The notes: generated by a model from the letters alone, not told the origin. A stretch of 64,000 nt of DNA from Spirochaetaceae bacterium (GCA_051531975.1 JAOPTT010000010.1:226678-290677); one strand, 5' to 3'. Shown: positions 41,034 through 63,307, counted from the stretch's first letter. Translations and numbers: made by a program.

Positions 41034-41185
41034 GTCTAACTTAAGCAATTACGAAATATTGCTTTATTGCTTTATTGCTTTATTGCTTTATTGCTTTATT
41101 GCTTTATTGCTTTATTGCTTAAAATATAATACTTCAAATAATAAACTAAGTAACATACTTTATATATTTAATAACATTACAAATA
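41034..41185 (-). repeat. attI/promoter-like platform, copy 1
   Basis: Homologous to 43274-43377 and 63241-63307; ends in GTTAGAC before RBS and gene. Confidence 0.75.
41058..41120. repeat. 8-bp VNTR (ATTGCTTT) about 8 copies
   Basis: Seven full units plus one partial. Confidence 0.95.
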
Positions 41186-41213
41186 GATTCTTAGTTTAGG
41201 TATTCGGTCTACT
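41186..41213 (+). other. dif-like site (TAGGTA)
   Basis: GATTCTTAGTT TAGGTA TTCGGTCTACT. Confidence 0.7.
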
Positions 41214-41220
41214 TAAGGGA

Positions 41221-41308
41221 TTTTCATGTCCCCCCAGGTATATAAATGTAAGTTCTATTAGTAGTAAACAGAGTTACATACGCCAATTTAGGCTGTATTA
41301 TGTTATCC
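41221..41308 (-). other. Degenerate attC-like site
   Basis: GGATAAC after stop, internal hairpin ATGTAA/TTACAT, ends ATGAAAA 7 bp before dif-like site. Confidence 0.4.
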
Positions 41309-41314
41309 ATAAAA

Positions 41315-41776
41315 CTATTTCTTAACTAAATAAAACTTTTGATGAGGATATTCAAACTCAACTGTTAATTCTGATTCTATAAATCCAAATTTTTTATATA
41401 AAGCACGGGGTGCAGTACCCCGAATATCATTTTCACGAAAAGTTGATACCGATATTGTTGAATTATCTGGAAAAAGATTAATCATTTTATTAACCATAAT
41501 GGTTGCGACCCCATTTCTCCTATGATCTGGATGAACAGCCATACATCCAAGACAATTTGATGATAAAGAGAAAATCAAGATTCCAATAATAACATTATCA
41601 GATTTAACACATAACGCTGTGTTTCTTTTTATGTTTTTAAGAACAGTAATTCTGTAATTGATCATCTCTTCATCGGTATCAAGCCCTGGAAAATTATCTT
41701 TGACTAAACCAATCATATTCATCCACAAATCAATGTCTTTAATACCTGCGACTTCTAACTTATATTTATTTACCAA
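41315..41776 (-). CDS. GNAT acetyltransferase
   Basis: AVHPDHRRNGVAT, ALYKKFGF. Confidence 0.9.
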   Translation of the reverse strand: MVNKYKLEVAGIKDIDLWMNMIGLVKDNFPGLDTDEEMINYRITVLKNIKRNTALCVKSDNVIIGILIFSLSSNCLGCMAVHPDHRRNGVATIMVNKMINLFPDNSTISVSTFRENDIRGTAPRALYKKFGFIESELTVEFEYPHQKFYLVKK

Positions 41777-41783
41777 TTTGTTT

Positions 41784-41811
41784 CCTTCCTAATTTAGGTA
41801 TTCGGTCTACT
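41784..41811 (+). other. dif-like site (TAGGTA)
   Basis: CCTTCCTAATT TAGGTA TTCGGTCTACT; fills almost the whole intergenic gap. Confidence 0.75.
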
Positions 41812-41813
41812 AT

Positions 41814-42467
41814 TTAAATTTTATATTTGCAATTTATTATAAAATCTTTTAATGATAAGCCCATTTTTCTATCCATATGAAATACATTTAATCCTACTTC
41901 TTTAGCAGCTATAATATTTTCTATTTTATCATCAATAAAAATACAACTTGCAGCATTTTTTTGTATTTTTTCAATTGTATAAGTATATATTCTATTATCT
42001 GGTTTATCAAAACCAACATACGAAGAGATAATAATGTGTTTAAAATATTTTCTTAAATCTAAATAATCAAACGCCCAATCTAAACTTGCATTAGCATTTG
42101 ATAATACATGGAGAGTAAACTTATCTTTTAGTTTTTCTAATACACTTATGGTGTCATCAAATAACTTATATTGAAATGTATCACAATTTAATATAAATAA
42201 TTTATCTAACAATACTTCATTTTGGGGATCAATGACTGAAACAATGATCTTTGTTCGTTCTAATAACCATTTTTTTTCATCTGACCAATTGTTAATTCTA
42301 TCATATTTTTCATTATCAAAATTATTAGCTTTAGATAGAGCTAATTCTATTAGTTCTTTAGTATAATTCATTGATGATAGGATTCTTCTTGTTATGTCAT
42401 TTCTAAACTCATTTATATAAAACAGAACTCCACCTGCATCAAAAATTATAGTATCTATATTATTCAT
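41814..42467 (-). CDS. HAD-IA family hydrolase
   Basis: IIFDAGGVL, LSNA, KPD, FIDDKIENI. Confidence 0.9.
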   Translation of the reverse strand: MNNIDTIIFDAGGVLFYINEFRNDITRRILSSMNYTKELIELALSKANNFDNEKYDRINNWSDEKKWLLERTKIIVSVIDPQNEVLLDKLFILNCDTFQYKLFDDTISVLEKLKDKFTLHVLSNANASLDWAFDYLDLRKYFKHIIISSYVGFDKPDNRIYTYTIEKIQKNAASCIFIDDKIENIIAAKEVGLNVFHMDRKMGLSLKDFIINCKYKI

Positions 42468-42564
42468 TTAGCCCCTCAATAAAATTATTTTTAACATTAT
42501 TTATGCTGTAATTAAATCTATAAAATGACATTTATAATCCTTAAGTGTACATGAGAATATTAGT

Positions 42565-42592
42565 ACATCTTAATATAGGTATTCGGTCTACT
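42565..42592 (+). other. dif-like site (TAGGTA)
   Basis: ACATCTTAATA TAGGTA TTCGGTCTACT; supplies TAG stop of 42588-42911. Confidence 0.75.
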
Positions 42593-42911
42593 TTATATAA
42601 ATATAGCTTATTTTTTTAAAGTCAAAATCCATATTCATTTCTTTAATAATATTTTGTGGATATGGTCCAATTTGTAAAGCATCAAATTCAGTTATAATAT
42701 CTTCAATAACTTCAATATCTCCTTTCAGGATGTCAGACATATTAAATTGTATGTTAATGGCATTTTCAGTTATATATAAACCTATTGAGATCATATTATC
42801 AGTAATTAAACTAAAACTTGATTGAACTAAATATAATGTTTGAAGGTTTTCAAATTGTTTGCTTTTACTTATGGTACATGCATTTAATGATCTTTCTATA
42901 AAATCCTTCAC
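42588..42911 (-). CDS. Hypothetical cassette gene, possibly truncated by the dif-like site
   Basis: Starts after attC core GTTAGGC; stop lies inside the dif-like arm. Confidence 0.55.
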   Translation of the reverse strand: MKDFIERSLNACTISKSKQFENLQTLYLVQSSFSLITDNMISIGLYITENAINIQFNMSDILKGDIEVIEDIITEFDALQIGPYPQNIIKEMNMDFDFKKISYIYIK

Positions 42912-42941
42912 TTTCGTTTATCATCCTTTTTAAATAATTTC

Positions 42942-43058
42942 GCCTAACGTTCCCGAGCATACACGCAGTTATTATTTTTACCATTTTTGCAGAGCAAAAT
43001 AAAAACAGAATAATTGGCCGTAGGCTGAGCGTAGCGAAACTTGTATGCTTTGTTATAC
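42942..43058 (-). other. Integron attC site
   Basis: GTATAAC-AAAGCATAC...GTATGCTCGGGAAC-GTTAGGC, locally GC-rich imperfect palindrome right after a stop codon. Confidence 0.85.
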
Positions 43059-43062
43059 GCTG

Positions 43063-43245
43063 TTAATTATTATTAAACCTTTTGTTAAATTCTTTTTCTT
43101 CCATACGATCTTCTTTTACTTGTTTCTTTACTAAAGACTTTTCTAATAATCTTTTACCTTCATGCTCATTGGCAAAAAAGTCATTAACTTCCTTCTTACT
43201 CATCCCTTTTGTCAATTTAAATGTTTCATGGTAACTATTAGCCAT
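43063..43245 (-). CDS. Small hypothetical cassette gene
   Basis: RBS AAGGA; bounded by GTTGTAC core and attC. Confidence 0.65.
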   Translation of the reverse strand: MANSYHETFKLTKGMSKKEVNDFFANEHEGKRLLEKSLVKKQVKEDRMEEKEFNKRFNNN

Positions 43246-43273
43246 AATAAGTCCTTTAATAATAATTAATTGT

Positions 43274-43377
43274 GTACAACTTAAGCCATTACGAAATATT
43301 GCGTTTTTGCTTTAAATATAATACTTCAAATAATCAACTAAGTAACATACTTTTTATATTTAAACACATTACAAATA
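43274..43377 (-). repeat. attI/promoter-like platform, copy 2
   Basis: Near-identical to copy 1 without VNTR expansion; ends in GTTGTAC. Confidence 0.75.
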
Positions 43378-43405
43378 ACTTCTTAGGTTAGGTATTCTGT
43401 CTAGT
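43378..43405 (+). other. dif-like site (TAGGTA)
   Basis: ACTTCTTAGGT TAGGTA TTCTGTCTAGT. Confidence 0.7.
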
Positions 43406-43407
43406 TG

Positions 43408-44463
43408 TTAAATATTATTGACTGAATAATCTAACTTAAATGGTAACTTATTTTTAATTTTTTTTAATACAATTCCAGTACGACTATCAACAATTACTTT
43501 CCAATATATTGAGAAATAGCTTAAATATCTATCTTGAAAGATACTTGATTCTGCTCTTCTAGGTTTATCTTTAATTAATTCTAATTGATATTCATTTTGA
43601 AATTCTTTATCCAACATAATAGTTGGAATTATATTGGTATTGATATTGGTAAGTATCTTATAGTCTAGGTTCATCATTGAGGCTATAATTTTTAACTTTT
43701 GATAGAGTTCCATTCGAACTAACAACTCTTTATATGACATATCTAATGATATTTCATTTGTTTCTAAATTAGTAATTTTGGCGAAAAAATCTAACTTATT
43801 ATTATCAATATTCTTATATATTTCATTAAATGTTGAATCTAATAATTCATCTATTTTATTTGATAGATGTTGTTTTTTCTTATCTCCCTTTAATCTCATA
43901 TTTTCTTTAATGATTTCTTTTTGATCTTTATATTTCGTAGCTGCATTTTTATCAATAGTTAAGTCTCTTAGTGATATGTTTAATAAGCTTCTATCTTCAT
44001 TATGCAACTGAGGAGGTACTGAAGCAAAAAAAAGTCCCTCTTCATTATTTTGTGTATGTGTACTAAGCAGCTGAGTATGTAAATGTAAATCCCCTAGTAG
44101 ATCAAATCCAGAAACTATTTCTATATGTTCATTAATATACTTAGTTAATGCTTCTTGATCAATTTTATCAACACTATTCCCTAAAACGTATTCAAACTCT
44201 AATATCATTAAATTTAATGATGATGGAGGGCCATTTAGATTTTTTATTTTGTAAAAGTATTCAACACTTTGCAAAGATTTTAATCGTTCTTTTCTAATCC
44301 CATCATTTTTATAATTCATAAGCTCTTTTAAATTATTCATTGTAAAAAGAGGAATAAATCCTTTTTTATATAAATCATTAATTTCATCTTTTAAATTCTT
44401 TTTTTTAATCATATTACTCCATGTCGAAGTATCTAGAATTATTGGTCTTGTGAAAATTATCAT
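43408..44463 (-). CDS. Hypothetical protein, possible PIN-like nuclease
   Basis: IILDTS at N-terminus, ..KEL, C-terminal QD...VD acidic residues. Confidence 0.5.
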   Translation of the reverse strand: MIIFTRPIILDTSTWSNMIKKKNLKDEINDLYKKGFIPLFTMNNLKELMNYKNDGIRKERLKSLQSVEYFYKIKNLNGPPSSLNLMILEFEYVLGNSVDKIDQEALTKYINEHIEIVSGFDLLGDLHLHTQLLSTHTQNNEEGLFFASVPPQLHNEDRSLLNISLRDLTIDKNAATKYKDQKEIIKENMRLKGDKKKQHLSNKIDELLDSTFNEIYKNIDNNKLDFFAKITNLETNEISLDMSYKELLVRMELYQKLKIIASMMNLDYKILTNINTNIIPTIMLDKEFQNEYQLELIKDKPRRAESSIFQDRYLSYFSIYWKVIVDSRTGIVLKKIKNKLPFKLDYSVNNI

Positions 44464-44562
44464 AAAAATCCTTAAAAAATTGATATCACTAAATTATGAT
44501 GCTAAATACTTATATTTCAAGAAAAATAATCTGTCTCTATTATGGGGTATACCAGTTTGAAT

Positions 44563-44627
44563 TTTTAACGGCCTGTTGAGAATAAAGTCTGTTCCAAAAT
44601 ATTTTATTTTCCAACAGTTTGTTATGT
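44563..44627 (-). other. Integron attC site (65 bp)
   Basis: ACATAAC-AAA-CTGTTG(G)AAAATAAA...TTTATTCTCAACAG-GCC-GTTAAAA with an unpaired G. Confidence 0.8.
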
Positions 44628-44637
44628 ACCTATTTAC

Positions 44638-45657
44638 TTATGAAAGTATATCTAATTCATATTCATCTATATATTTATTAATTGGAATGTCAAACTCTTT
44701 ATACAGTTCATACGTAGTTGAATTAATTCCTGACCATTTTTCTTTCCAGCAATCATCAAAGTATTTCTTATCATCTTTTATAATTAGTAAATCTCTTATT
44801 AAACCTAGAATATTTGTATTTTCTCCAATCTTTTTTTTATATTCTAAATATTTATCATTATCTATTAAACTCAACTCTTTTATATTTTTAATACCAAATA
44901 TATTTAATTCATCAATTATTTCTGTACTATTTTTTCGCCATTCATTTGGTGATATTTTCTGTATAATTGCTGAATAAACACTAGAGTTGAAATATTCAAG
45001 TAAAGTTGTTGAATTAATTTCATAATCAAACTTTTGATTGTTAAATTTTTCTTTTATTTCTATTGTATATTCTTCTATATCTTTAGCGATGTTATTAAAT
45101 TCATTATCAGCTACTTCTAAAACAGCAGATATTAAATTAAAACGTCTCTTAATTTCTGTTGGTAAGGTACCACTAAATTTGTAATTTTTATCATGTTCAA
45201 TTTCAGCCCATGTATGTTGTAATAGTGTTCTTATTTGAATTTCAAATACATAATTTTTAAAATTAGAATACTCTGGTAATAAACATCTATTACTATTAAT
45301 TTTGCATATATAATGTATAGATCTATAGCCAATTTTATTTATTCCCAAATCTTCATTCTTATTTGAAGTTTCATTCTGATCTATATCAAACTCATCTTCA
45401 ATTAATTTACATATTGTTGTAACATCATCTTGAACATATGCTATTATCCTAAGTCCTATATAGTCTTTTATTTCATATTTAGGATTTTTATAATTTTCTG
45501 CTTTAGTTAAAAAACTTTTTAGTGATTTTGCTCTTCCATTAATATCGTGAACTTCCAAAGAATTTACAGCAATGATCCTTTTTAATAATTCATTAATTGT
45601 TATTGTAGCACTTTCATATAGTGGTAATTTATTATTATAATAATTTTTCAGTTCCAT
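44638..45657 (-). CDS. RelA/SpoT-domain small alarmone synthetase with C-terminal extension
   Basis: R.KS..S...K, DYIGLRII, GYRSIHY, EIQIRTLLQHTWAEIEH. Confidence 0.9.
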   Translation of the reverse strand: MELKNYYNNKLPLYESATITINELLKRIIAVNSLEVHDINGRAKSLKSFLTKAENYKNPKYEIKDYIGLRIIAYVQDDVTTICKLIEDEFDIDQNETSNKNEDLGINKIGYRSIHYICKINSNRCLLPEYSNFKNYVFEIQIRTLLQHTWAEIEHDKNYKFSGTLPTEIKRRFNLISAVLEVADNEFNNIAKDIEEYTIEIKEKFNNQKFDYEINSTTLLEYFNSSVYSAIIQKISPNEWRKNSTEIIDELNIFGIKNIKELSLIDNDKYLEYKKKIGENTNILGLIRDLLIIKDDKKYFDDCWKEKWSGINSTTYELYKEFDIPINKYIDEYELDILS

Positions 45658-45757
45658 TTTATTTCCTAATCTTGATTTTTTATACTATGACTTGCTTACT
45701 GTTTCATGTGTCATTTTTTTTCATATTATTTCCTTATGTTCAATTTTTTAAACTGTC

Positions 45758-45779
45758 GCTTCCTAGTATTCGTTCTACA
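45758..45779 (+). other. Internally deleted dif-like site
   Basis: GCTTCC-TAGTA-TTCGTTCTACA. Confidence 0.5.
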
Positions 45780-45786
45780 TGGGGAA

Positions 45787-45902
45787 TTTTTACGTTCTCA
45801 TCAGCTGTTTTACTTGCTGGAGTGAACCTAGGTGTTTGAGGAATATTATTTTTCTGCAGATAGTTTTAAAACAGTAAAATCTATTCCAAGAGTTTATTAA
45901 AT
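45787..45902 (-). other. Degenerate attC site
   Basis: ATTTAAT-AAAC-TCTTGGAATAGA matches left end of 51569 attC; ends GTAAAAA 7 bp before dif-like remnant. Confidence 0.55.
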
Positions 45903-45942
45903 ACCTCATAAAAGTTATTTGATAAAAAGTCATTTACAACTT

Positions 45943-46725
45943 TTATTTTAGTTCATCTTCAATGTTATTAATGTCATAAATTATATTATCTATAAATTGT
46001 GATCCTAAAGAAGTTATTTTAAGTTCTGCTTTATTTGTTGAGTTTTCAATTACTTCAAAAATCTCTTTTCTGTAGTCATCTATTATATTTTCTATAGTAC
46101 TACTTTTGTAATTACTAGGAAATGAATAATTAAAACTAGAATTTATATCCAAAGTTCTTCTTAAAAGAGCAAAATTTTGTAAACTTGAAGTATTAAAATC
46201 AAAATGGTTCTGGCATAGTTCTAACTTTTTTATATCTCTAATGTGTACAGCTGGTGGCATAATTATATCTGGATAAATAAATTCTAATTTAGAACGCGTA
46301 GGGTATAATTCATTATTTTCTTTTGTATGAAAATATATGAGAATTATAACTTGTTCATATGTAATATCTTCTAAAATAGCAATAAATTTTTCTGTGATAT
46401 TAGGTTCTATTTCTTCATATATTCCCTTTCCTATTATCGATGTAATCCATTCCCTTTTTTTCTTATTATTAGTTTTAGCAGAAATTCTAATACCTTCTTC
46501 TAGTAGGAAAAGAGCATCTAAATTACTCTTACATTTATCCTCAATATCCTCAAACCTTGTTGATAATAACTTAAGAAAATCTGTGACTCTATCCATCCGC
46601 TGATTAGGTATAATTGCTGAAACTAATTCACCCAGAAATGTTCCTGCTAAAGGTACAGCTCCTAGAGTAGATTTTATTGCAGAATTTACTACATCAATCC
46701 TATTATTTGATAAATTTTCATTCAT
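45943..46725 (-). CDS. Hypothetical protein (Abi-alpha-like N-terminus, tentative)
   Basis: LGAVPLAG..LGEL....IPNQRMDR..DFL; C-terminal ITSLG.QF. Confidence 0.6.
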   Translation of the reverse strand: MNENLSNNRIDVVNSAIKSTLGAVPLAGTFLGELVSAIIPNQRMDRVTDFLKLLSTRFEDIEDKCKSNLDALFLLEEGIRISAKTNNKKKREWITSIIGKGIYEEIEPNITEKFIAILEDITYEQVIILIYFHTKENNELYPTRSKLEFIYPDIIMPPAVHIRDIKKLELCQNHFDFNTSSLQNFALLRRTLDINSSFNYSFPSNYKSSTIENIIDDYRKEIFEVIENSTNKAELKITSLGSQFIDNIIYDINNIEDELK

Positions 46726-46758
46726 ATTTTCCTCATCCTTTTTTATATATTAATTAAA

Positions 46759-48060
46759 TTAAGATAATACTCTTCTTATAGTTTCTATTAGTGATTTTAA
46801 TAAATATAATATTCTAGTTAAAGGAAAAACAGATGATATAACAGCAATTATGGCAATTACTAATGCATCAAATCCAAAGTTCGTTGAATATATAGATATT
46901 GCATCATTTAAATTGTTTCTAGTCATTTTTAGTTCTTTTTCTATTCCTATAAGTTGCTTTCTTAAAATATTATTGAAGTTAGAATATAAGGGTTTAACAG
47001 GGTTATTATCGATAGGTACTAATAAGTCACTTTCTATTTTAACTTTGTAAAAATGAGGAACAACTCTTTGGGTATTTTCTTTTTTATCTCTTTCTTGTCC
47101 AACGATCCACATAGTGAAAGGAATATTAATATAGCTGACACCATATTCTAGATATTTTTCTAGCTTATCAGTGTATAATAAATACTTAGGATAAATACTT
47201 TCAAGGTCGAAAATTGTTTTGGGTATATTTTTTAAATAATTCCAACTTTTAAATCTTTTAAAAATATGTAATAAATTACTTGGGACTCCGTGTAAAGAAT
47301 TAATTATTTGATCATTTAATTTTATAATTTGTTTTTGAATCTTTGATAATTTATTTTGAAATAACTCAAAATCATTATATAGGAGAATATCTAAACATAT
47401 TCTATCTCTAATTACTTTCTTGTTTTCCCCAAAATAAACTGAATATAATCTGCCTTGATTATGTATTTGTTTATCTCCAATATTAGTCAAAGAAAAAAAA
47501 CGATTATCATTAAGATCTAATTTAAACACTGGATAATCAGCATCAGTTTTTAACTTTAAATCTTCTAAGTTATTGTATAAAACATCCCAGAATGGATTTG
47601 GAATCCAATGTATTTCAATATTTAATTTTCTTGAAATACTTAGACATTGATTTCTAAACGCTAGTTCAGAAGAAGTTTTTTCATTGAGTTGCTCAATTAT
47701 AAAGCTATTTTCTTCAATTTGCATTGTAAAAAAAATCATCATTCCATCATAGAATATCTCAATAATGCCCTCTTCGGTTTGATATTTAATAAATAACTGA
47801 TAAGGAAATCCTAAATAAGATGTCTCATGAATAACTTTTATGTATTTTATATTTTCTATATTTATAATCTCATTTTTTATATCCAGTAATTCTTCTTTTA
47901 TATTTCTACAGAAGAGATGATTAATGTACCCTAGATTAATATCGTCATTGTCAAAATCTTCTTCAATAGTAGTATTCCAATCAATTTTTCTTGATAATAT
48001 AGGTTTCTCAGGGATACTACAGAAATTTAGAGCTAAATTATTTATTTTTACTTTTTCCAC
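46759..48060 (-). CDS. Hypothetical protein with coiled coil and C-terminal TM
   Basis: 433-aa ORF; hydrophobic C-terminus. Confidence 0.65.
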   Translation of the reverse strand: MEKVKINNLALNFCSIPEKPILSRKIDWNTTIEEDFDNDDINLGYINHLFCRNIKEELLDIKNEIINIENIKYIKVIHETSYLGFPYQLFIKYQTEEGIIEIFYDGMMIFFTMQIEENSFIIEQLNEKTSSELAFRNQCLSISRKLNIEIHWIPNPFWDVLYNNLEDLKLKTDADYPVFKLDLNDNRFFSLTNIGDKQIHNQGRLYSVYFGENKKVIRDRICLDILLYNDFELFQNKLSKIQKQIIKLNDQIINSLHGVPSNLLHIFKRFKSWNYLKNIPKTIFDLESIYPKYLLYTDKLEKYLEYGVSYINIPFTMWIVGQERDKKENTQRVVPHFYKVKIESDLLVPIDNNPVKPLYSNFNNILRKQLIGIEKELKMTRNNLNDAISIYSTNFGFDALVIAIIAVISSVFPLTRILYLLKSLIETIRRVLS

Positions 48061-48211
48061 AACAACCTCAGAAATTTTTAAATTATATACCGTTTTAATA
48101 TTAAGTTACGCATGAAATTTTAATTGTTTATTTAAGTGTAAAAATCACCGATTTATCGTTGATTAAGTTTATCTTATTACTGTCTGTATACAAACTAAAT
48201 ATATTCCCTTC

Positions 48212-49282
48212 TCATGAATCAAGGTTATTAGATATATATATTTCATCTCTAATTTTTCTTTGAATTGAATTGTTTGATGGATAATAATTCGAATCTAAAA
48301 TTTTATTATTCTCTTTAAGATAGTTTTTGTAATTCGATAAAATTTCCTCAAAAAATCCCAAATCTAAAGTATTCTTTTTCAAACCCACTTGAATAATTTT
48401 ATTTAAAGCCATTGTTAACCCACCAAAACCTGCAGTACGATTTATTATGTACTTTTTAGGATCGTTCCATTCTAAATTAAAAATGTTTTCGGCAGCTTTA
48501 AAATAATTGAAAATGATTTTATAAATAATGGAATCTTCTTCCCTTATAAAATAATATCTTAGAGGGAGCATTTCATCAGGAACTATTTTTTTTCTGTTTT
48601 TTATGTTTATAGTATCTTCTTTTGGTTTTTTAGAAATTAAATTAATAAGATAATTTACAAAAGTACCTTGAGATATCGTTTCTGAATCTAATTGTTTTTT
48701 CCCTAACATTTTTAAACGCCGATAAAATGGTGAATTTTCATCAGAATTTAAAGCTCTTGCTAATTCATGCATAGTCTTAAATGGACTTCTTGTTTCTGAA
48801 ATATGAAACAAATCATATATTAAAGATGGATCAATTTTTTTTTGGTTAGAATTTATTGTTGAAAAAACGTAGGCTTTTTCTTCTTCTGTAAGATCAGGCA
48901 TTATTACAAGAGGTATTTGAATTGATTTATTTAAGGAACTTTCTGTTATACCTAATAATCTATGCTGACCATCAATTATTTCAAATAAATTTTTTTCATT
49001 TTCGTTAAACTCTATTGTATTATTATCTATAGTAAAATTATCACTATCTATTGAAACAATTATTGCAGATGGAAAAGTTGCATCGGGATCTTCACAGTAT
49101 TTTTGAATATTTTTAATTCTTTCCTTTGAATCTTTTCTCTGAATACCACCTGAAGATATAAAAAGTTGAGGGTCATAATCACGTCTATTAATAAAACAAT
49201 ATTTGTATAATAAATTTATTTCAATAACAGATAAATAGTAAGAACCTATTGGTTGAGTTATAGTAAGATATTGGAGTTTCAT
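48212..49282 (-). CDS. DGQHR-domain (DndB/ParB-like) protein
   Basis: GIQR, FPSAII, IIDGQHRL, FSTINSNQKKI. Confidence 0.9.
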   Translation of the reverse strand: MKLQYLTITQPIGSYYLSVIEINLLYKYCFINRRDYDPQLFISSGGIQRKDSKERIKNIQKYCEDPDATFPSAIIVSIDSDNFTIDNNTIEFNENEKNLFEIIDGQHRLLGITESSLNKSIQIPLVIMPDLTEEEKAYVFSTINSNQKKIDPSLIYDLFHISETRSPFKTMHELARALNSDENSPFYRRLKMLGKKQLDSETISQGTFVNYLINLISKKPKEDTINIKNRKKIVPDEMLPLRYYFIREEDSIIYKIIFNYFKAAENIFNLEWNDPKKYIINRTAGFGGLTMALNKIIQVGLKKNTLDLGFFEEILSNYKNYLKENNKILDSNYYPSNNSIQRKIRDEIYISNNLDS

Positions 49283-49809
49283 ATTTTTATTCCCCTATTG
49301 TCATTTTTGATATTCTTTGATTTGTTTTTGATTTGTGAAACTATTTTATCATCTTGTTCTTTGAAATTATCCATATCCATATGTAAATATAAGGAAAGGT
49401 AGGAATATACAATAATAAGTATACCTATTGTATATATTCCAACCTGCAACCAAAGTTTTGTATTTGTAATAATATTTGTTAAATCTGATAAAAGAAAACT
49501 GGATATAATTATTGATAATATAGAACAAGCAATCAAAAATAATTTATATGATTTAAAATGAGCTGCAGTATCAGAAAAAGTTGATTTTATAATTAAATAC
49601 ATAGAAGAACCTAATAAAGGAATTATTGTATTATATAATAAACCTGTTTCTGAAAATGAGATTAATCCTTTTAAAATATCATCCTGGTTTAGAATTATCT
49701 GAAAAATTGGTAAAAATAAACCCAATTGACCAATAATTAATGTAAATAAAATAAATGTATAAAATTGCCATTTAATACTCTTTATAATTTTGAATGGTTT
49801 TATAATCAT
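49279..49809 (-). CDS. 4-TM membrane protein translationally coupled to DGQHR gene
   Basis: Four hydrophobic helices; ATGA overlap. Confidence 0.75.
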   Translation of the reverse strand: MIIKPFKIIKSIKWQFYTFILFTLIIGQLGLFLPIFQIILNQDDILKGLISFSETGLLYNTIIPLLGSSMYLIIKSTFSDTAAHFKSYKLFLIACSILSIIISSFLLSDLTNIITNTKLWLQVGIYTIGILIIVYSYLSLYLHMDMDNFKEQDDKIVSQIKNKSKNIKNDNRGIKI

Positions 49810-49926
49810 AGTTAAATCCTAATTTAATTTTAATTCTTTTTTATATAATATATTATTAGTAATATTAGTACCAAGTCCACAAAAGTTATATTTTTGGCTA
49901 TAAATCACCCCATTTAACCACTATTA

Positions 49927-50517
49927 CTAAGATTTAAGGAAATTATACAAAGTAGTCCGACTAATCCCAACAGCACTAGCTACTACACTTTTTTGTTCAC
50001 CTAAAGATAACAAAGCATTTATTTGTGATGCCTTTTGCTTTGTTATCTTGGTAGATCCTTTAGGTCTACCAAGGATTACACCTCTATCTTTTGCTCTTTG
50101 AATACCTAGCTTTGTTCTTTCACCTAATAGCTTAACTTCTCTTTTTGCTAATGATAGCTGCAGGTCGAATATAAACTCTTCTTCTGCTGACATTCCCTTC
50201 TTGATTGTTAAGTTAGACATTACGACATAGATCTCTAGATCTTCTCTTACATCTGTTATATGCCTTAGTAGCTTTAAACCATCCCTGGTATTTCTTCCTA
50301 TCCTGGATATCTCTGTTACTACTATCTTTTTAACTTCTGGGTTTATGATATGATCCCAGAGTTTCCGGTTCTCTAATTTGGTTTTAGAAGCTGATACTTG
50401 CTCCAGGATAATGTCATCGAATGTGATACTCATCATCTCTTCGTATCTTTCGAAAAAGGTTCGGTATTTATCTTTGTCCTGGGCTACAGAACTTATTCTA
50501 CTGTATGCAATTATCAT
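49927..50517 (-). CDS. Serine recombinase (resolvase/invertase)
   Basis: YSRISS..Q, EISRIGRN, ERTK.G...AK..G..LGRP, C-terminal HTH GISRTTLY. Confidence 0.92.
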   Translation of the reverse strand: MIIAYSRISSVAQDKDKYRTFFERYEEMMSITFDDIILEQVSASKTKLENRKLWDHIINPEVKKIVVTEISRIGRNTRDGLKLLRHITDVREDLEIYVVMSNLTIKKGMSAEEEFIFDLQLSLAKREVKLLGERTKLGIQRAKDRGVILGRPKGSTKITKQKASQINALLSLGEQKSVVASAVGISRTTLYNFLKS

Positions 50518-50528
50518 ATGTTATTTAT

Positions 50529-50662
50529 TGTAAGACTATTTTATTTACATGTCTATTAATTATTTGTTTAATTAAATCTTACAGTTAATTCTTTTTATTA
50601 CATGTTGAATCCCAAAATCACTGAGTTTGGTATGTTCAGAAAAACGAACGATTAATTATACA
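50529..50662. other. Putative res site
   Basis: TGT...ACA-bounded subsites at 50529-50549, 50550-50583 and 50633-50662 (TGTTCAGAAAAACG AA CGATTAATTATACA) upstream of the resolvase. Confidence 0.6.
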
Positions 50663-51496: not shown

Positions 51497-51568
51497 AATA
51501 AGTTAGTAAAATATTATGGTATAAAAATAAAGATAGTTACAAAATTATTATAAACAATCAGGTATGAA

Positions 51569-51721: not shown

Positions 51722-51728
51722 CTTATAA

Positions 51729-55466: not shown

Positions 55467-55846
55467 TTACTTAATGGTTTCGACAACCCAATTAAAGACA
55501 TCCTCTGATATCTCTACTGCTGTATTATATTCATCTTCAGTTATTTCATAGTAATCGTCTGGATACCTAGTTGTAACAGCATAGTTATTTAACCTTACAC
55601 AAACTCTTACATTGTCAGGAACAGGTAGGCTTTTCATTATAATCTGAATTAGTTCATTTAAGTAATGTGTTTTGGGAGGGTTAAGTCCTAAATGAATCAT
55701 AAGACCTTTTAATGCTTTTCTGCAGACTGTTGAGTGTTAAAACATAGGTCTTCATAAAGGATATTCTCTATTTTAGCTATTTTTGATAGTTCCAAAGAGC
55801 CTTGAGCTCTTCTCATCCACTCTTTTACATCTCTACTCTTATCCAT
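55467..55846 (-). pseudogene. HEPN-domain protein, frameshifted
   Basis: MDKSRDVKEW...QQSAEK then 1-nt loss near 55716; LKGLMIHLG...KTH...RYP continues in another frame. Confidence 0.8.
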
Positions 55847-56156
55847 ATATTGTAACCCCTTGATTATCAACATCATTATAAATCATGTATGGGTTATCTT
55901 TATTTTTTTCAAACTTTTCAGGACTGGATGCGACTATATCTACTGAGTTTCCAACTTCGATATCTAATAATGCCATATATATATCAGCAGAGACCACTCG
56001 TTCATTTGTAATTCCACTCTTGATTACAAAGATATCATAGTCACTATCGTCTCTATTTTTACCAGTTGCACGAGATCCAAACAATATAATCTTATCTGGG
56101 TGTACTGTCTTAATTATTATGTCTCTTATCTGATCTAATGTTTTATCCTGATTCAT
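55839..56156 (-). CDS. Minimal nucleotidyltransferase (MNT)
   Basis: ILFGSRATG...DSDYDI. Confidence 0.92.
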   Translation of the reverse strand: MNQDKTLDQIRDIIIKTVHPDKIILFGSRATGKNRDDSDYDIFVIKSGITNERVVSADIYMALLDIEVGNSVDIVASSPEKFEKNKDNPYMIYNDVDNQGVTIYG

Positions 56157-56313: not shown

Positions 56314-56919
56314 TCAAGTATTGTTATAAATTAACTTATCAAATTTTATTACTGATTCTTTATTCAAATTATCATCGTATATATCTGATTCAAAAAATCT
56401 ACTATTGTTACCTGTTAAATAGCCTTCTATTAATTCCATTGCCATAATAGCTGGATAATTGTCTCCATTTCTATCACTAATGGAATATTTTGCAGCTTCT
56501 ACAAATCCAAATTGTGGGTAATATTCCGGCCGACCGAAGAAAACTATTGCTCCATAACCGAGTTCTGTTGCTTTTTTTATAGTTGTATTCATAAGTAATT
56601 TACCGACTCCTTTTCGTTGGTATTTCGGTAATACACTAAACGGCCCAAATGTCAAAACATCTATTTTCCGATCGTTGCTTGTTAAAATATAGGCTTTCGT
56701 AAATATAATATGGCCTATTATACTGTTATCAACCTCTGAAACGTAGCTTAATTCCTTAATCCCGTCTTTATTTCTAAATTCATGGACCATCCAATGTTCG
56801 TATGGGCAACCTATCCCCCCACGTTCAATTCTTCCTGGATATGAAAATGCCTCTCTTGTAATATCTTCAACCTTTTTATAGTCTTGTTCTTCTTCAAGTC
56901 TAACGTTTATTATCATCAA
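56314..56919 (-). CDS. GNAT acetyltransferase (YhbS-like)
   Basis: GPFSVLPKYQRKGVG, G.PEYYPQFGF. Confidence 0.9.
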   Translation of the reverse strand: MMIINVRLEEEQDYKKVEDITREAFSYPGRIERGGIGCPYEHWMVHEFRNKDGIKELSYVSEVDNSIIGHIIFTKAYILTSNDRKIDVLTFGPFSVLPKYQRKGVGKLLMNTTIKKATELGYGAIVFFGRPEYYPQFGFVEAAKYSISDRNGDNYPAIMAMELIEGYLTGNNSRFFESDIYDDNLNKESVIKFDKLIYNNT

Positions 56920-58489: not shown

Positions 58490-58532
58490 TAAATATATTA
58501 CTAAGAGTAATGTAAGTTCCAGCTTTAATATA

Positions 58533-58647
58533 ATCAATAATAGCAACAGTGATGATTTTTAAATATAAGAAGTAGTGATACATTATATGTATGGGTGTAA
58601 TAAATGTAAAAATTAAAGTTTATGTTAGAGTTCAAGGGGTCTGCTTT
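58533..58647 (+). pseudogene. Duplicated 5' part of acylphosphatase gene with its upstream region
   Basis: Near-identical to 61167-61281 (MGVINVKIKVYVRVQGVCF). Confidence 0.85.
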
Positions 58648-58734
58648 GGAGTTGGAAATGGAAAGTACTTTTCCCTATATCAATAGTGGATAGCTGTAGA
58701 GGACTTTCTCCTCATAAGTATTAACCCATGTCGG

Positions 58735-58856
58735 GTGTACCAAAAGTATGGAGCTGACCGTCTTTTGGTACATATCCTGAATGAAAAATGCAAGATAAGC
58801 GCCAATCCTTCCACTTCGTTCCAGGCACAAGCCGGTAGCTCATACAGACGTTAAAA
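58735..58856 (+). other. Orphan attC site
   Basis: GTGTACC-AAA-GTATG(G)AGCT(G)ACCG...CGGTAGCTCATAC-AGAC-GTTAAAA; two unpaired bases. Confidence 0.75.
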
Positions 58857-58906
58857 AGACACCATAATTTGTGCTTTAAATTGTTGTTGATAGTATCATA
58901 GGAATA

Positions 58907-59879: not shown

Positions 59880-60464
59880 TCATTTGAACTTTCTTAAATA
59901 ATTATTAACAATTTTATTGGCTTGATCTTGTAGATTCCCTGGTTGCCTATCAAACCAACCTAAACCATTGAATCTTTTTGTTTCTAAAACTGACGTTTTG
60001 TCACGCCATCCAATGACATTTGTTTCCTTTGGTAGTTCCTTTTTCCAATCTGAAATATAGTCTCCCTGGTGGCAGTTCTCAAAAATAACTGTTTCTAAGT
60101 TTTTGCTTACATTAATATATTTTAAATCATAAGGAGTTAGTCTTTTATCATCAGAAGTTTGGATCATCGCACTTCTCTTACCATGGCCACTAATAACAAT
60201 CATTCTAGCTTCTTGATCTGTAAATGCATCTAAAACATCTTGCTTTGTTGCATCATAATCAACAACAACTTCCAAACCATTTTCTCTAAGATATTTAACT
60301 TCTTGCTTAATAGAATTTAGTTCACGATTTTTCATTTTTTGATCTTTTTTTGAATCTGACTTATAGACGTACAAGAAATAAACTTGAGCTAACCTATTCG
60401 GATCTATAAAGTTAATCGGATTCTTTTCTATATGCTTATCCAAGGTGCCACTATATTTAGTCAT
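59880..60464 (-). CDS. Orphan Rhs C-terminal tip, putative caspase/clan-CD-like peptidase
   Basis: NPINFIDPNRL junction motif; IVISGHG and VIFENCH His/Cys dyad pattern. Confidence 0.65.
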   Translation of the reverse strand: MTKYSGTLDKHIEKNPINFIDPNRLAQVYFLYVYKSDSKKDQKMKNRELNSIKQEVKYLRENGLEVVVDYDATKQDVLDAFTDQEARMIVISGHGKRSAMIQTSDDKRLTPYDLKYINVSKNLETVIFENCHQGDYISDWKKELPKETNVIGWRDKTSVLETKRFNGLGWFDRQPGNLQDQANKIVNNYLRKFK

Positions 60465-60534
60465 TTTAATACTTTAACCCTTAATTATTATCTGTGCCAC
60501 CTAATTAAATTAATCTAGATTAAATTTTGATAAG

Positions 60535-60562
60535 AGTTGACTTAGTGATAATTATTGGAAGT
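60535..60562 (-). other. dif-like site (TTATCA)
   Basis: ACTTCCAATAA TTATCA CTAAGTCAACT. Confidence 0.7.
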
Positions 60563-60587
60563 AAATTTTATTCTAACTTCCTTGAAC

Positions 60588-61080
60588 TTAACCTCTGTAA
60601 TTCACTATTTCATTTAACAAAGCCTCTAGACTTTCAACTGGACAGTCTCCATTAACCCCATTTACAGCTGTTTATCATAAGTCGTCCATCATCCCTTTTA
60701 TAAGTATTTATTAAATACCTAACTTCGTGGCGAAACTCTTCTGGTGTACCCCAGAGGATAATTTTTTGTACATCAAAACCGGCTAGTATTCAGATTTTGT
60801 CACCATAGTTCTCAGCGACCTGTTTTTCGTCCATTGTATGCTTTTGTATAGGATGAATAACATCGATACCACACTCTACATAAAAAGGAAGAAAGTTTGA
60901 TACATTCCCACAGGTATGAAGCCAGAAGTGTACTCCTTTTTCATGGCATGCTTCTGCTATTCTTTTGTAATAACGATAGAAAAATTCTATAAAAATATCA
61001 TTAGAAAAAAAGGACTGGTCTGCATACCTACATCATCAGTTGTGAAAATACCAACTAGAGAGAGTTCTTTTACAGACCGT
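60588..61080 (-). pseudogene. Uroporphyrinogen decarboxylase/MtaA-family fragment
   Basis: GIFTTDDVGMQ...FWLHTCGNV...GIDVIHPIQ...GTPEE; internal TGA near 60790, no 5' part. Confidence 0.8.
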
Positions 61081-61224
61081 TTGCTATCCCTCTTAGTGAA
61101 TTACGGGGCATAAATGTAATAGAGTAAAATTCTATGAAATAATTAGTATCTATCTACTTTTACAAGATCAATAATAGCAACAGTATTGATTTTTAAATAT
61201 AAGAAGTAGTGATACATTATATGT

Positions 61225-61500
61225 ATGGGTGTAATAAATGTAAAAATTAAAGTTTATGGTAGAGTTCAAGGGGTCTGCTTTAGAGCATTAACAAAGAAAA
61301 GTGCTATAACTCTAGGTATTAATGGCTGGGTTAGAAATTTATCTGACGGTACCGTAGAGATTGAATGTGAATCTACTCTAGATAAAATAGAACAACTAAT
61401 CTCCATTCTAAAAGTTGGGAACGGTTTCTCCAGGGTAGATAAATTCTACAAGACAGAGGGGGTATTTGTAGGTTATCAATCATTTAAGATAGTGTATTAG
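61225..61500 (+). CDS. acyP: Acylphosphatase
   Basis: GRVQGVCFR, GWVRNLSDGTVE. Confidence 0.92.
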   Translation: MGVINVKIKVYGRVQGVCFRALTKKSAITLGINGWVRNLSDGTVEIECESTLDKIEQLISILKVGNGFSRVDKFYKTEGVFVGYQSFKIVY

Positions 61501-61592
61501 TTTCATACTAATTAATATAAAAAATATTTGGTAAAAGAGGTGACTTTATAACAATAGGGGTTAATTCTATATTGTAATCATTCCCCATAGAT

Positions 61593-61988
61593 CTATTCAT
61601 TTAATACAAGATTTTCTATCTGTTTATAAATATATTTTGCTTCTCTATAAAAGTCCTTTGACCTTTCAATAGATAAAGATCCATATGGTAATAGTCCCAT
61701 ATCAGCTGGATATCTTACATCTATATACGTTTCAGAAATTTCTTCTAAAAGAGTCATATCAATATCTAATTTACAATAATTTCGGACTGAACCATATAAT
61801 CTTAAAAGATTGTGTTTCATAGGCACATTTTCAGTATTTAAACAGATTATAGCTTTAAAACATTTTTCTACGCACTGATGACAATGAAAGGCAACTACGT
61901 TAGTTAAATCTTCATCATCAAGTAATTAGGTAACAGTCTTTAAATCTTTGAATGCAAATAACAACCACTCTTTAACTAACTTGTTCAT
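61593..61988 (-). pseudogene. HEPN-domain protein with premature stop
   Basis: MNKLVKEW...KTVT*(61926-61928)...FHCHQCVEKCFKA...KHNL...RYP. Confidence 0.8.
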
Positions 61989-62316
61989 AAAGAAGTATTC
62001 CTTTTTCAGTTATCTCGGTCATAAATGTTTTATTGAATTGATTTAAGATTTTAAATTCTTCTTTAGTATAAACAAGTATATCAATAGAAACTTCCATACT
62101 TAATTCAAGTATGGTATTTCTGACTGTAACTTTATTTCTAAGTTTCTCATCATAAGTTTTAGGCATATCATCAGTATTTAAGATTACTGCTAAATCAATA
62201 TCGCTATCTTGGTTCTCAGTTCCTCTAGCAACTGAGCCAAACATATAAATTTGAAAAGGGTCTATTTCCTTTAGAGATTCAACAATTTGTGGGATATAAC
62301 CTCTTAAATCATTCAT
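61972..62316 (-). CDS. Minimal nucleotidyltransferase (MNT)
   Basis: MFGSVARG...DSDIDL. Confidence 0.92.
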   Translation of the reverse strand: MNDLRGYIPQIVESLKEIDPFQIYMFGSVARGTENQDSDIDLAVILNTDDMPKTYDEKLRNKVTVRNTILELSMEVSIDILVYTKEEFKILNQFNKTFMTEITEKGILLYEQVS

Positions 62317-62537
62317 ATTAAAAATAGTACCTCATTTGTGATTTATTATCTATAATATTTTTATATGACATAGATATAACCTTCCACTATGATAAAATAT
62401 AATTTCTTGTTTGTGTATTTCTCTTGTGTTATGACTCAATAATAACAAATCCAACCAATAGAACAATAATTTCATTTTGGTTATAATCTCCACGATTGGT
62501 TGGGTAATCTACTGATGTTGTGTAGCTTATAGATCCA

Positions 62538-62990
62538 TCATGATTCATCATGATTCATCATAATTATATATTTTTGATAATATATATCTAATGATATTTC
62601 AAATTCTATTTCAAATGAATAAAATCCAAATGATTTTTTACTCTCTATTTCATCATCTAAATTATAGTTCGTTGTATAATTACCTTTAAGAGTAGATTCT
62701 CCTATATCTTCTGTTTCATCAGAATTACCTTTAAAAGTTGGGGAGATGCTATTTCCTATAGAGTCTCTTTTAAATACTTGAGAAAATTTATTTTCTGATA
62801 AAAAGGTTATTGGAGTCTCTTTTTTTTCAGGGTGAAAATCAAATGGGAAACTTTGCTCATTAGAAAAGAAAAGTGGACCATCTAGTGTAGAACATATCTG
62901 ATACTCTTCTTTGAAAATAATTTTTGTAAATGGTAATGAATATATTGATACTGACAAAAACAATAGAACTGTACTTATTAAAAACTTCAT
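62538..62990 (-). CDS. Hypothetical secreted protein
   Basis: N-terminal signal-like peptide. Confidence 0.5.
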   Translation of the reverse strand: MKFLISTVLLFLSVSIYSLPFTKIIFKEEYQICSTLDGPLFFSNEQSFPFDFHPEKKETPITFLSENKFSQVFKRDSIGNSISPTFKGNSDETEDIGESTLKGNYTTNYNLDDEIESKKSFGFYSFEIEFEISLDIYYQKYIIMMNHDES

Positions 62991-63101
62991 TTAAATATCC
63001 TATATAATAATATATGATAAGTACTACTTTTATTTTTAGATGACTGAAATTATATTATCGTAAGAAAGAAGCTGTAAGAGATGATTTAGAGATCTATGTG
63101 G

Positions 63102-63228
63102 AAATGGAACAATTCATCTCCATTCTAGAAGTGGGGAACGATTTCTCCAGGGTAGATAAACTCTACAGGACAGAGAGGGCATTTGTAGGTTATCAATCAT
63201 TTAAGATAGTATATTAGTTTCATACTAA
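63102..63228 (+). pseudogene. Duplicated 3' part of acylphosphatase gene
   Basis: Diverged copy of about 61385-61512. Confidence 0.85.
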
Positions 63229-63240
63229 ATAATATATTTA

Positions 63241-63307
63241 AAAATTCGTTGTTTGAAGTACTATACTAAAAGTAATAACGCAATATTTCGTAATTGCTAA
63301 GTTAGGC
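63241..63307 (+). repeat. attI/promoter-like platform, copy 3 (inverted relative to copies 1-2)
   Basis: TTTGAAGTACTATA...GCAATATTTCGTAATTGCTAA-GTTAGGC. Confidence 0.75.

Follow-up and report, generated by a model that had tools for sequence, protein, structure and literature searches.

Gene cassettes in arrays that lack an integrase are usually assumed to be silent or to depend on read-through. In a 64,000-nt stretch of a Spirochaetaceae genome (the window, on contig 10 of genome G000), a short AT-rich repeat stands directly before unrelated genes in such arrays, which raises the question of what this repeat is. The first-pass annotation took its copies for solo attI sites, each heading its own cassettes, with homology between the copies ending at a GTT core.

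Three copies of a repeat before three different genes

The dispersed repeat is real, being seen both in pairwise comparison and by BLAST. Two full copies, W1 (41034-41218) and W2 (43274-43410), lie in direct orientation to each other on the minus strand, and a 5'-truncated copy, W3 (63241-63307), lies inverted to them on the plus strand. W1 and W2 are 89% identical over 110 nt (41105-41214 vs 43297-43406) and 85% identical over 53 nt (41022-41074 vs 43262-43314); between the inverted arms of W2 and W3 (43284-43365 and 63217-63298), complementarity is 74% over 82 nt. A BLAST search of the entire 5.46-Mb genome gives E values of 1e-35 for W1/W2 and 7e-11 for W3/W2. In W3, a piece of an acylphosphatase gene (63102-63249) takes the place of the upstream part. 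The repeat is longer than originally described: W1 and W2 include a 30-nt upstream box (minus strand, 41218 to 41189 and 43410 to 43381, the latter starting at the stop codon of a 351-aa ORF). This box also has two solo copies on the minus strand, one at 41787-41816 (GTAGACCGAATACCTAA...) between HAD and GNAT genes, and one at 42568-42597, which overlaps the stop codon of a 107-aa ORF and has a small hairpin after it.

The reported GTT cores are present as well: GTTAGAC in W1 (41040 to 41034, minus), GTTGTAC in W2 (43280 to 43274, minus) and GTTAGGC in W3 (63301-63307, plus), fitting GTTRRRY at 7, 6 and 7 of 7 positions, respectively. A different gene follows each copy, as had been noted. The leader and ribosome-binding site of W1 reach the ATG, at 41011, of a DUF6228 gene (40604-41011, minus) with a weak WapI-like immunity match; the W2 leader reaches the ATG, at 43245, of a 60-aa ORF without a family match (43063-43245, minus); and W3 is followed by a GNAT acetyltransferase gene (63331-63777, plus). 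What did not survive is the arrest of homology at the core. A single 68-nt BLAST match (83.8%, E 4.6e-10; 43247-43314 vs 41010-41074) spans the core of W1 and W2 up to the start codons, and two copies in the same-genus genome G001 (A and B) are homologous past GTT up to the AAAGGAAT ribosome-binding site. For W3, G001 copy C and a copy on contig 25, homology to the other copies ends at or near the core; nor does every copy have a GTT core, the contig 25 copy having GATTAAG at the corresponding place. Since both W1/W2 and G001 A/B are alike beyond GTT, the conserved unit ends at the gene start and not at a recombination point.

In the sense of the gene, the unit has the promoter-like layout that had been suspected: an A-rich stretch, a -35-like GTTACT or TTTACT, 17 nt, and a -10-like TATTAT or TAGAAT, followed by direct GCAAT-type boxes, from two to nine in number, the inverted pair GCAAT-N8-ATTGC, TTRAGTT, a short leader and a ribosome-binding site. 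The candidate hexamers GTTACT and TATTAT, as read from the sequence, are equally placed in W1 (41154 to 41149 and 41131 to 41126) and W2 (43346 to 43341 and 43323 to 43318), in both cases on the minus strand with a 17-nt spacer. W1 carries eight tandem 8-nt units (41057-41120, minus). Its inverted repeat (GCAAT-N8-ATTGC, 41062 to 41045, minus) is followed by TTAA and GTTAGAC, that of W2 (GCAAT-N8-ATGGC, 43302 to 43285, minus) by TTAA and GTTGTAC, and W3 has kept both its inverted repeat (63280-63297, plus) and the -10 region. TTTACT-17-TAGAAT stands at the homologous place in copies on contigs 25 and 6, and a promoter scan flags both (9/12); W1 and W2 fall below its threshold because GTTACT matches the -35 consensus at only 3 of 6 positions. 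Promoter-like matches are not above those in shuffled, AT-rich DNA (57 vs 60.9 expected, 41 vs 44.8, 5 vs 3.1, and 4 vs 3.4). Compensatory changes in the hairpin of the module amount to three pairs in one sequence only, G001 copy B, and are equalled by 36-43 of 500 shuffles. A fourth, apparently related promoter box (AAAAAGTATTTGAC, 17 nt, TAATGT) occupies 63872-63950 on the plus strand; it has no inverted repeat, precedes a gene starting at 63951, and corresponds to the pattern match at 290550-290562 of contig 10.

With the three copies in the window and about three relatives elsewhere, the unit is present in low number. Relatives precede an LCM methyltransferase gene on contig 25, an NDT-like gene on contig 6 and a 323-aa ORF on contig 16, and others are found in G001; some lie outside cassette arrays. 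Around the copies on contigs 6 and 16, the attC model described below gave no significant match, only a 19.5-bit one about 2.3 kb from the copy on contig 16, and it gave nothing near the three G001 sites. Within the class, 3 of 401 genomes contain the 18-nt inverted-repeat pattern, and the match in G028 was discarded as chance, lying inside an 878-aa ORF; a reversed control pattern had 0 matches in the same 401 genomes.

Integron setting, and the comparison with attI and attC

The right half of the window contains integrase-less cassette arrays. A covariance model built from the genome's own attC sites, which finds 18 sites in the genome and generalises to G001, matches four sites in the window, and the setting of the repeat is therefore integron-like, as proposed. 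On the minus strand are a short attC of the genome's own family (44561-44628; 38.3 bits, E 1.4e-7) and a weak match (45785-45903; 19.5 bits, E 0.028) that nevertheless shares 78% identity, across 109 nt, with one of the attC sites in the contig 8 integron. On the plus strand are sites at 51568-51723 (39.2 bits when the whole genome was searched, and 19.7 bits, over 51581-51710, when only the window was) and at 58734-58858 (44.7 bits, E 2e-9), the latter 88% identical to a contig 3 attC. The name CALIN has been given to attC clusters without an integrase (Cury et al. 2016, PMC4889954). By the description given there, the stretch 44561-45903 fits, with two same-strand attC 1.2 kb apart on a contig without intI and an IntI elsewhere in the genome, whereas the other two attC are 7 kb apart and on the opposite strand; moreover, the term describes the setting and not the repeat.

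The lack of an integrase, also part of the earlier description, is true of the window and of contig 10 as a whole, but the genome does have one. No tyrosine recombinase was found among the 73 ORFs of the window, and no integron integrase gene adjoins the copies there; the sole TIGR02249 match above cut-off in the genome is on contig 8 (387 bits). The first-pass annotation had proposed a BLAST search for a copy adjoining intI. The resident attI beside this only intI, conserved between this genome and G001 (31 of 38 identities around ATATGTTAT), is unlike the repeat and has no GCAAT repeat, and on these grounds we reject the identification of the repeat as attI. In attI1, direct repeats and an inverted L/R pair are combined with a crossover between G and TT in the R box. 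The module likewise has a GTTRRRY core, direct boxes and an inverted pair upstream, a promoter-like layout nearby and varied genes after it; it differs in not standing beside intI, in being unlike the resident attI, in homology that crosses the core, in copies outside arrays, and in that most of its genes have no attC-like hairpin behind them.

Inverse cores had been reported after two of the genes, and both exist. GTATAAC (43058 to 43052) agrees with the W2 core at six of seven positions, the remaining one being a G-T wobble, and ACCTAAC (63784-63790, plus), after the GNAT gene, agrees equally well, at six of seven, with the W3 core; in two canonical contig 8 cassettes, compared by eye, the inverse core fits the upstream core at 6 of 7 and 7 of 7. 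Of the two, only GTATAAC stands at the start of a plausible divergent attC (42934-43058, minus), which lies behind the 60-aa ORF. The ends of this site, TATAACAAAG on the 5' side and GGGAACGTTAGGC on the 3' side, were compared by eye with the genome's attC alignment and resemble those of that family; its inner arms are AAGCATAC/GTATGCT and it ends in GTTAGGC, but its fold is weak (z -1.25/-1.48) and the genome's attC model gives no match. No hairpin follows ACCTAAC (DNA fold z +0.27/+0.29), and hairpin searches after the DUF6228 and GNAT genes found none, which leaves an attC-like site behind one of the three downstream genes. The repeat itself was also rejected as an attC, by fold for W2 (z -0.46/+0.29, vs -4.6/-6.5 for canonical attC) and by the genome's covariance model for W1 and W2 (15.3 and 14.1 bits, E 0.44 and 0.95).

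IS91-type elements at the core in a sister genome

GTT does prove to be a real DNA-joining point, in G001. There, a 2.4-kb IS91-type element with an IntI-like recombinase (type 1) lies exactly at the GTT of two diverged copies of the module. The two elements are 99% identical, and both (2/2) are inserted between AA and C of an inverse-core-like heptamer beside the stem of the module; the joined ends of the element form a hairpin with boxes GTCCAAC and GTTGAAC (-19.2 kcal/mol). Because the inserts are transposons of the IS91 type, we rejected these insertions as cassette captures. As for a cassette joint at GTT, the window has the cores, which W1/W2 homology crosses, and the joint seen in G001 is that of an IS91-type element.

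A second type of element in G001 abuts canonical attC sites in both of its full copies (39.6 and 44.8 bits). Since type 1 is found at the matching point of the module and type 2 at attC, the end of the module appears attC-like as a target, although the module itself neither folds like an attC nor matches the attC model. Elements of the IS91 family make no target duplication and have a GTTC/CTTG-type tetranucleotide beside the origin end, as set out in PMC13181058. Unless the targeting is a coincidence of shared GTTA, the module would add a new kind to the targets of such elements. In G001, copy C stands immediately behind the gene of a short IntI-like recombinase, and the two have the same orientation. 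In G000, the search for IS91-type transposases gave 0 matches; the recombinases found there are the contig 8 IntI, a tandem pair on contig 17 with counterparts in all three sister genomes of the genus, and one fragment, with no short IntI-like one.

A promoter-leader reading and its alternatives

Our best reading is that the module is specific to one spirochaete genus and stands directly before unrelated accessory genes in integrase-less integron remnants. That it acts as a portable promoter-leader, giving cassette genes transcription independent of the integron promoter, we regard as an evenly balanced proposition. Housekeeping RNA polymerase would start a few bases downstream of the -10 hexamer; the 5' end of the mRNA would then carry the GCAAT boxes and the small hairpin, or these would serve as an operator just past the start. 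The downstream gene would thereby receive its own transcription, which would matter because these genes sit in integrase-less arrays without a link to the integron promoter. The GTT core would belong to the leader. On the other strand, it reads as an integron inverse core (GTCTAAC, GTACAAC, GCCTAAC) adjoining the stem, which may be why attC-homing IS91-type elements target GTT in the sister genome. Promoter-bearing cassettes that switch on downstream cassettes are described in Vibrio superintegrons (Blanco et al., NAR 2024, PMC11014356). The module resembles the gene-less promoter cassettes and internal cassette promoters of sedentary chromosomal integrons presented in that paper in being a short non-coding unit in an array with its own (predicted) transcription for downstream genes, but differs from them in not being bounded by attC, in being a homologous repeated unit with an inverted repeat and leader, in being fused to the gene start, and in occurring outside arrays too.

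The GTTRRRY fit of the cores would also suit a promoter-carrying secondary docking site, at which the resident integrase or an IntI-like recombinase inserts attC-bearing cassettes between G and TT, each copy heading its own small array. The inverse cores, which fit their upstream cores as in real cassettes, the divergent attC-like site ending in GTTAGGC, the near-identical G001 elements at GTT with their hairpin-forming joined ends, and the position of G001 copy C speak for it, and integrase-less arrays are known to arise when cassettes insert at secondary sites (PMC4889954). We consider it unlikely, given the dissimilarity to the resident attI, the homology across GTT in W1/W2 and G001 A/B, the missing hairpins after the W1 and W3 genes, the lack of a short IntI-like recombinase in G000, and the IS91 family rule (PMC13181058), which accounts for the G001 junctions without an integrase. 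Distinctly doubtful is the reading that joins promoter and docking, in which the module would be a capture-and-express head: a promoter plus a miniature attC-like hairpin with inverse core, where enzymes that act on single strands dock genes between G and TT, to be expressed at once without a linked integrase. These enzymes would be either the integron integrase, working at a secondary site, or the pair carried by attC-homing IS91 elements, an IntI-like recombinase and an HUH transposase.

Three further explanations have little probability. The repeat could be the long middle of a second, atypical attC type, with the 30-nt box (ACCTAAC CTAAG) as 5' arm, CTTAA GTTAGAC as 3' arm, and the solo boxes as collapsed versions. 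In 3 of its 5 copies the box does begin at a stop codon or no more than 3 nt from one, ACCTAAC is complementary to GTTAGGT, and a stem with one extra base (TTAAG-A-TGTAC/GTACA-CTTAA) lies behind the 42568-42597 copy; we find this idea very improbable since neither W2 nor the short copy (z -0.83) forms an overall hairpin, the arms pair over about 8 bp with a mismatch, no spacer separates the R and L boxes, the attC model gives no match, and the promoter part recurs without the box on contigs 25, 6 and 16 and in G001. Even less credible is that the hairpin and core are a remnant of, or imitate, the terminus of an attC-homing IS91-type element (an IS/MITE end). The origin-end stem in G001, GTCAAT/ATTGAC, resembles the module arms GCAAT/ATTGC (TCAAT/ATTGA in copy B), with GTTA next in both, yet the likeness is limited to arms of 5-6 nt, G000 lacks the transposase, and the copies have no bounding terminal inverted repeats or target duplications and stop at gene starts. 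In Bacteroides fragilis, the master invertase Mpi acts on invertible promoters. A 196-aa serine recombinase is encoded between W1/W2 and the inverted W3 (49927-50517), its best family match, at 78 bits, being the Mpi model, whose cut-off is far higher at 272 bits, and a 37-nt fragment of such a gene lies beside W3 (63070-63106); crossover of W2 or W1 with W3 would flip 20-22 kb and swap promoters. To this we give the least credence of all. Both systems link a promoter-like unit to short inverted repeats, but here the 18-nt inverted repeat lies inside one copy and is not a promoter-flanking pair, and the copies are 20 kb apart. Moreover, the module occurs far from such a gene (contig 25, contig 6, chromosomal sites in G001, where the recombinase homologue is on the second contig), the recombinase gene has its own, different repeats close by, and no inverted junction was seen in the assembled contigs of one run.

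If the promoter-leader reading is true, a homologous unit placed on unrelated cassettes would be one way in which a genome keeps stranded cassettes expressed, and the conserved GCAAT boxes point to a shared control of cassette genes. Its use by IS91-type elements in the sister genome suggests either that it carries their minimal recognition signal, and so helps to define that signal, or that it is truly a docking site. A capture-and-express head, if that is what the module is, would be a dispersed, integrase-free analogue of the integron platform.

Layout of the repeat and its promoter-leader reading

In the 5.46-Mb genome that holds the window (31% G+C, 29 contigs), the repeat is present as the first-pass annotation described it, and far beyond chance by both sequence comparison and whole-genome BLAST. 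The two full copies, W1 (41034-41218, minus strand) and W2 (43274-43410, minus strand), share 89% identity over 110 nt and 85% over another 53 nt (E 1e-35). W3 (63241-63307, plus strand) is a partial inverted copy, 74% complementary over 82 nt (E 7e-11 against W2). Beyond the window BLAST gave only two matches, short and partial, on contigs 1 and 25. Along the gene direction, a full copy comprises first a 30-nt box (GTAGACCGAATACCTAA...) and an A/T-rich stretch, then GTTACT and TATTAT separated by 17 nt. Next comes a single GCAA-type box in W2, whereas W1 has eight 8-nt units in a perfect array. The inverted repeat GCAAT-N8-ATTGC follows, and after it TTAA, the GTT core (GTTAGAC in W1, GTTGTAC in W2) and a leader of about 25 nt with a ribosome-binding site, ending at the start codon. 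W3, with core GTTAGGC, retains only the last ~65 nt of this module, and the 3' end of a broken acylphosphatase gene stands in place of the upstream part. The genes that follow (DUF6228, a 60-aa ORF and a GNAT, respectively) are unrelated, as had been noted. Homology, however, does not stop at the core as claimed: a single BLAST match between W1 and W2 (43247-43314 versus 41010-41074; 68 nt, 83.8%, E 4.6e-10) spans it and reaches both start codons.

We give about even odds to the repeat being a portable promoter-leader module. A promoter scan flags TTTACT-17-TAGAAT in the copies on contigs 25 and 6, at the place where W1 and W2 have GTTACT-17-TATTAT. W1 and W2 themselves are not flagged, and promoter-like matches are not enriched in the AT-rich DNA of the window; we therefore infer the promoter from the conserved layout.

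Several features of these copies deserve description. The W1 array (41057-41120), with the unit GCAATAAA on the gene strand, is an expanded form of the box in front of the inverted repeat. Among listed sequencing runs, none of RNA contains the DNA of the window; one marine metagenome DNA run does, and its RNA companion gave no contigs. The public contigs of the DNA run are interrupted in the array, where a 38-nt contig has a depth of 142, and the number of units may thus be uncertain or variable. Contigs of the same run cross W2 at depth 32 without alternative letters. At 3-6x, several contigs match the promoter part alone and then diverge, one of them into an inverted-repeat variant; these are probably copies in related strains. 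The only joint in the contigs of this run had a 21-nt side and was disregarded. The 30-nt box, (G/C)TAGAC(C/A)GAATACCTAA..TAAG, begins at or just past stop codons and occurs five times in the genome: four copies lie within a 2.2-kb stretch (41189-41218, 41787-41816, 42568-42597 and 43381-43410) and one on contig 1 (45178-45194). Possible roles are a binding site or the 5' arm of an attC type that has decayed. Finally, the window holds an intact acylphosphatase gene (61225-61500) and a second copy in two pieces: a 5' fragment (58523-58651) followed by an attC at 58734, and, 4.4 kb beyond, a 3' fragment (63102-63249) just before W3. This copy looks to have been split by inserted or rearranged DNA.

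The resident integron, stranded cassettes and the repeat

According to the first-pass annotation, the repeats were solo attI/promoter platforms without an integrase, each with its own cassettes. Within the window no tyrosine recombinase is found among 73 ORFs, and there is one small serine recombinase (49927-50517). For the genome the statement fails: a single integron integrase in it scores above the family cut-off, on contig 8. This 411-aa ORF (387 bits; 31741-32976, minus strand) and the region at 34.5-45 kb form the one complete integron of the genome, in which a divergent array beside intI includes five or more canonical attC sites of ~113 nt that make up a tight family. The layout is the usual divergent one, unlike that in Treponema, which a 2013 paper (PMC3607928) presents as the only spirochaete clade with integrons and as having intI pointing toward attI.

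For an attC model, ten contig 8 sites were aligned, a 38-pair structure was written by hand and a covariance model was built on the alignment. The structure has good support: 83.3% of its cells are paired versus 71.9% in shuffles, none of 500 shuffles reaches the observed value, and 18 pairs have changes on both sides. Genome-wide the model returns 18 sites (E<=1), and it also picks out many in the integron of a sister genome of the same genus, G001. Four matches lie in the window: 58734-58858 (plus strand, 44.7 bits), 44561-44628 (minus, 38.3 bits), 51568-51723 (plus, 39.2 bits in the genome search and 19.7 bits in the window search) and 45785-45903 (minus, 19.5 bits), which shares 78% identity with a contig 8 attC. 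The right half of the window therefore consists of two integrase-less cassette stretches in opposite orientations. Typical cassette cargo abounds there (GNATs, NUDIX, HAD and HEPN/nucleotidyltransferase pairs), and the region fits the CALIN as characterized by Cury et al. (PMC4889954).

The serine recombinase gene, which is Mpi-like (49879-50657), has a paralogue (94% protein identity) near cassette debris on contig 1 (52921-53699), a fragment ~1.2 kb from an attC on contig 3 (206179-206286) and a 37-nt fragment adjoining W3 (63070-63106); it seems to travel with integrase-less cassette regions. A ~170-nt repeat upstream of a CHAT-like ORF occurs in the window (60387-60565), on contig 3 (109163-109340) and twice on contig 1 (55120-55286, plus strand; 56756-56919, minus strand). 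The contig 1 copies are inverted, 1.5 kb apart and ~1.6 kb from the serine recombinase paralogue, making the segment between them a candidate invertible segment. At 55467-55876 and 55839-56156, a nucleotidyltransferase gene adjoins a HEPN gene that is divided into two ORFs (77 and 55 aa), and this pair is toxin-antitoxin-like, its HEPN part being interrupted. Between the two cassette stretches (45943-49809) lies a defence-island-like block with an Abi-alpha-like ORF, a family-less 433-aa ORF, a DGQHR (DndB/DpdB-like) gene and a small ORF.

The repeat itself is neither an attC nor the resident attI. A first idea, that it is a variant attC, was rejected on single-stranded DNA fold controls: W2 folds no better than shuffled sequence does (z -0.46 and +0.29), in contrast to a control contig 8 attC (z -4.6 and -6.5). 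The attC model gives 15.3 bits for W1 (E 0.44) and 14.1 bits for W2 (E 0.95), and an Rfam search of 38000-64000 returned no matches at E<=1. The true attI region, between intI and the first cassette, has a block conserved between the two genomes (31/38 identities around ATATGTTAT), with the common consensus AAAAC.AGT.AT.TAATATGTTAT. The repeat has nothing in common with this block. With homology crossing the core and no likeness to the resident attI, the attI reading as stated is not supported.

A looser version, in which the module is a docking site for cassettes, we regard as unlikely. By eye, the inverse cores of two canonical contig 8 cassettes fit their own 5' ends at 6/7 and 7/7 positions, versus 5/7 and 6/7 for the next core. 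By the same comparison GTATAAC, after the 60-aa ORF, fits the W2 core at 6/7 (with a G-T pair at the seventh) versus 4/7 for the core of the upstream canonical attC, and for ACCTAAC, which follows the GNAT gene, the agreement with the W3 core is 6/7. The first-pass annotation had an inverse core following the gene in these two cases, and both are present. GTATAAC opens an attC-like segment (42934-43058) whose ends resemble the attC family and whose inner arms are complementary, but its fold is weak (z -1.25/-1.48) and the attC model misses it. Folding reveals no hairpin after the GNAT or the DUF6228 gene, so that one of the three downstream units is cassette-like.

Relatives of the module within the genus

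An 18-nt inverted-repeat pattern matches only W1, W3 and contig 25 in the whole genome, with W2 one mismatch away. Among 401 genomes sampled across the class it matches three, and a reversed control pattern none. One of the three, G028, is a chance match inside an 878-aa ORF, which leaves the genome of the window and G001, both of one genus. A promoter-box search added relatives on contig 6, where a degenerate inverted repeat is followed by GAGTTAGGT and an NDT-like gene, and, without the inverted repeat, on contig 16 and at 63872-63950 of the window. The copies on contig 25 (66240-66290) and contig 6 (~622420-622470) have a common extra upstream hairpin, CACCA-N4-TGGTG followed by GTAAAA..GATAA, and the intergenic DNA there seems to be built of shuffled short modules. 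Five inner pairs of the inverted repeat are retained in 6 to 8 of 8 copies. Both-side changes occur in one copy only, which 36-43 of 500 shuffles equal, and pair changes do not tell a hairpin from a protein-binding palindrome.

Outside the genus, no module relatives were found in the genome_contigs collection, the 401 class genomes or the metagenome_contigs collection. The long pattern had no matches in genome_contigs, nor the promoter-plus-palindrome pattern in metagenome_contigs, collections from which records near this genome may be absent. A 20-nt palindrome pattern hit 72 metagenome loci, none with the promoter box and five with a nearby GTT; all of them, in coding DNA whose G+C is higher, are apparently chance matches.

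IS91-family elements at the GTT

G001 holds three copies (A, B and C) of the promoter-plus-inverted-repeat unit. In A and B, an identical 2.4-kb element (99% over 2434 nt) stands directly after GAG, beginning GTTGAAC and ending ...CTCCTAACC, then GTTA. It carries a gene for a 279-aa tyrosine recombinase of the IntI/XerA kind, which lacks the IntI insertion, and a frameshifted gene for an IS91-family Y2 transposase. Homology between the A and B flanks resumes past the element, as far as a ribosome-binding site; therefore, the element lies inside the leader, at the GTT. Moreover, the flank of A matches copy C after its GAGTT for ten bases. Joining the two ends of the element by script gives a strong hairpin in which GTCCAAC and GTTGAAC are the boxes. 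The arrangement looks like that of an integron cassette, yet is also consistent with the IS91 family rule, which according to PMC13181058 is that the target is not duplicated and that a tetranucleotide of the GTTC/CTTG type lies beside the origin end.

Both full copies of a second, similarly built element type abut a canonical attC (39.6 and 44.8 bits), in reverse orientation and at the complement of its inverse core. G001 thus has two types of 2.4-2.5-kb IS91-family elements with a short IntI-like tyrosine recombinase upstream of the Y2 transposase (L026 12944-15329, L028, L037 3945-6490 and L112 7506-10044). The first type is in the promoter module in 2/2 copies, and GTTA follows every right end of both, including all three of the second type. 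ISfinder includes IS91 members that have an integrase gene upstream; our search of the IS and IS91 literature found no paper on recombinase-bearing IS91 elements targeting attC. A genome search found no IS91 transposase in the genome of the window.

On the strand opposite the genes, the cores of W1, W2 and W3 read GTCTAAC, GTACAAC and GCCTAAC next to the stem. An inverse core beside a hairpin is the kind of target that attC-homing elements seek. The best-supported reading is a portable promoter-leader module, which would supply stranded cassette genes and other accessory genes with transcription of their own. Its hairpin-plus-core end may be attC-like enough to attract attC-homing transposons.
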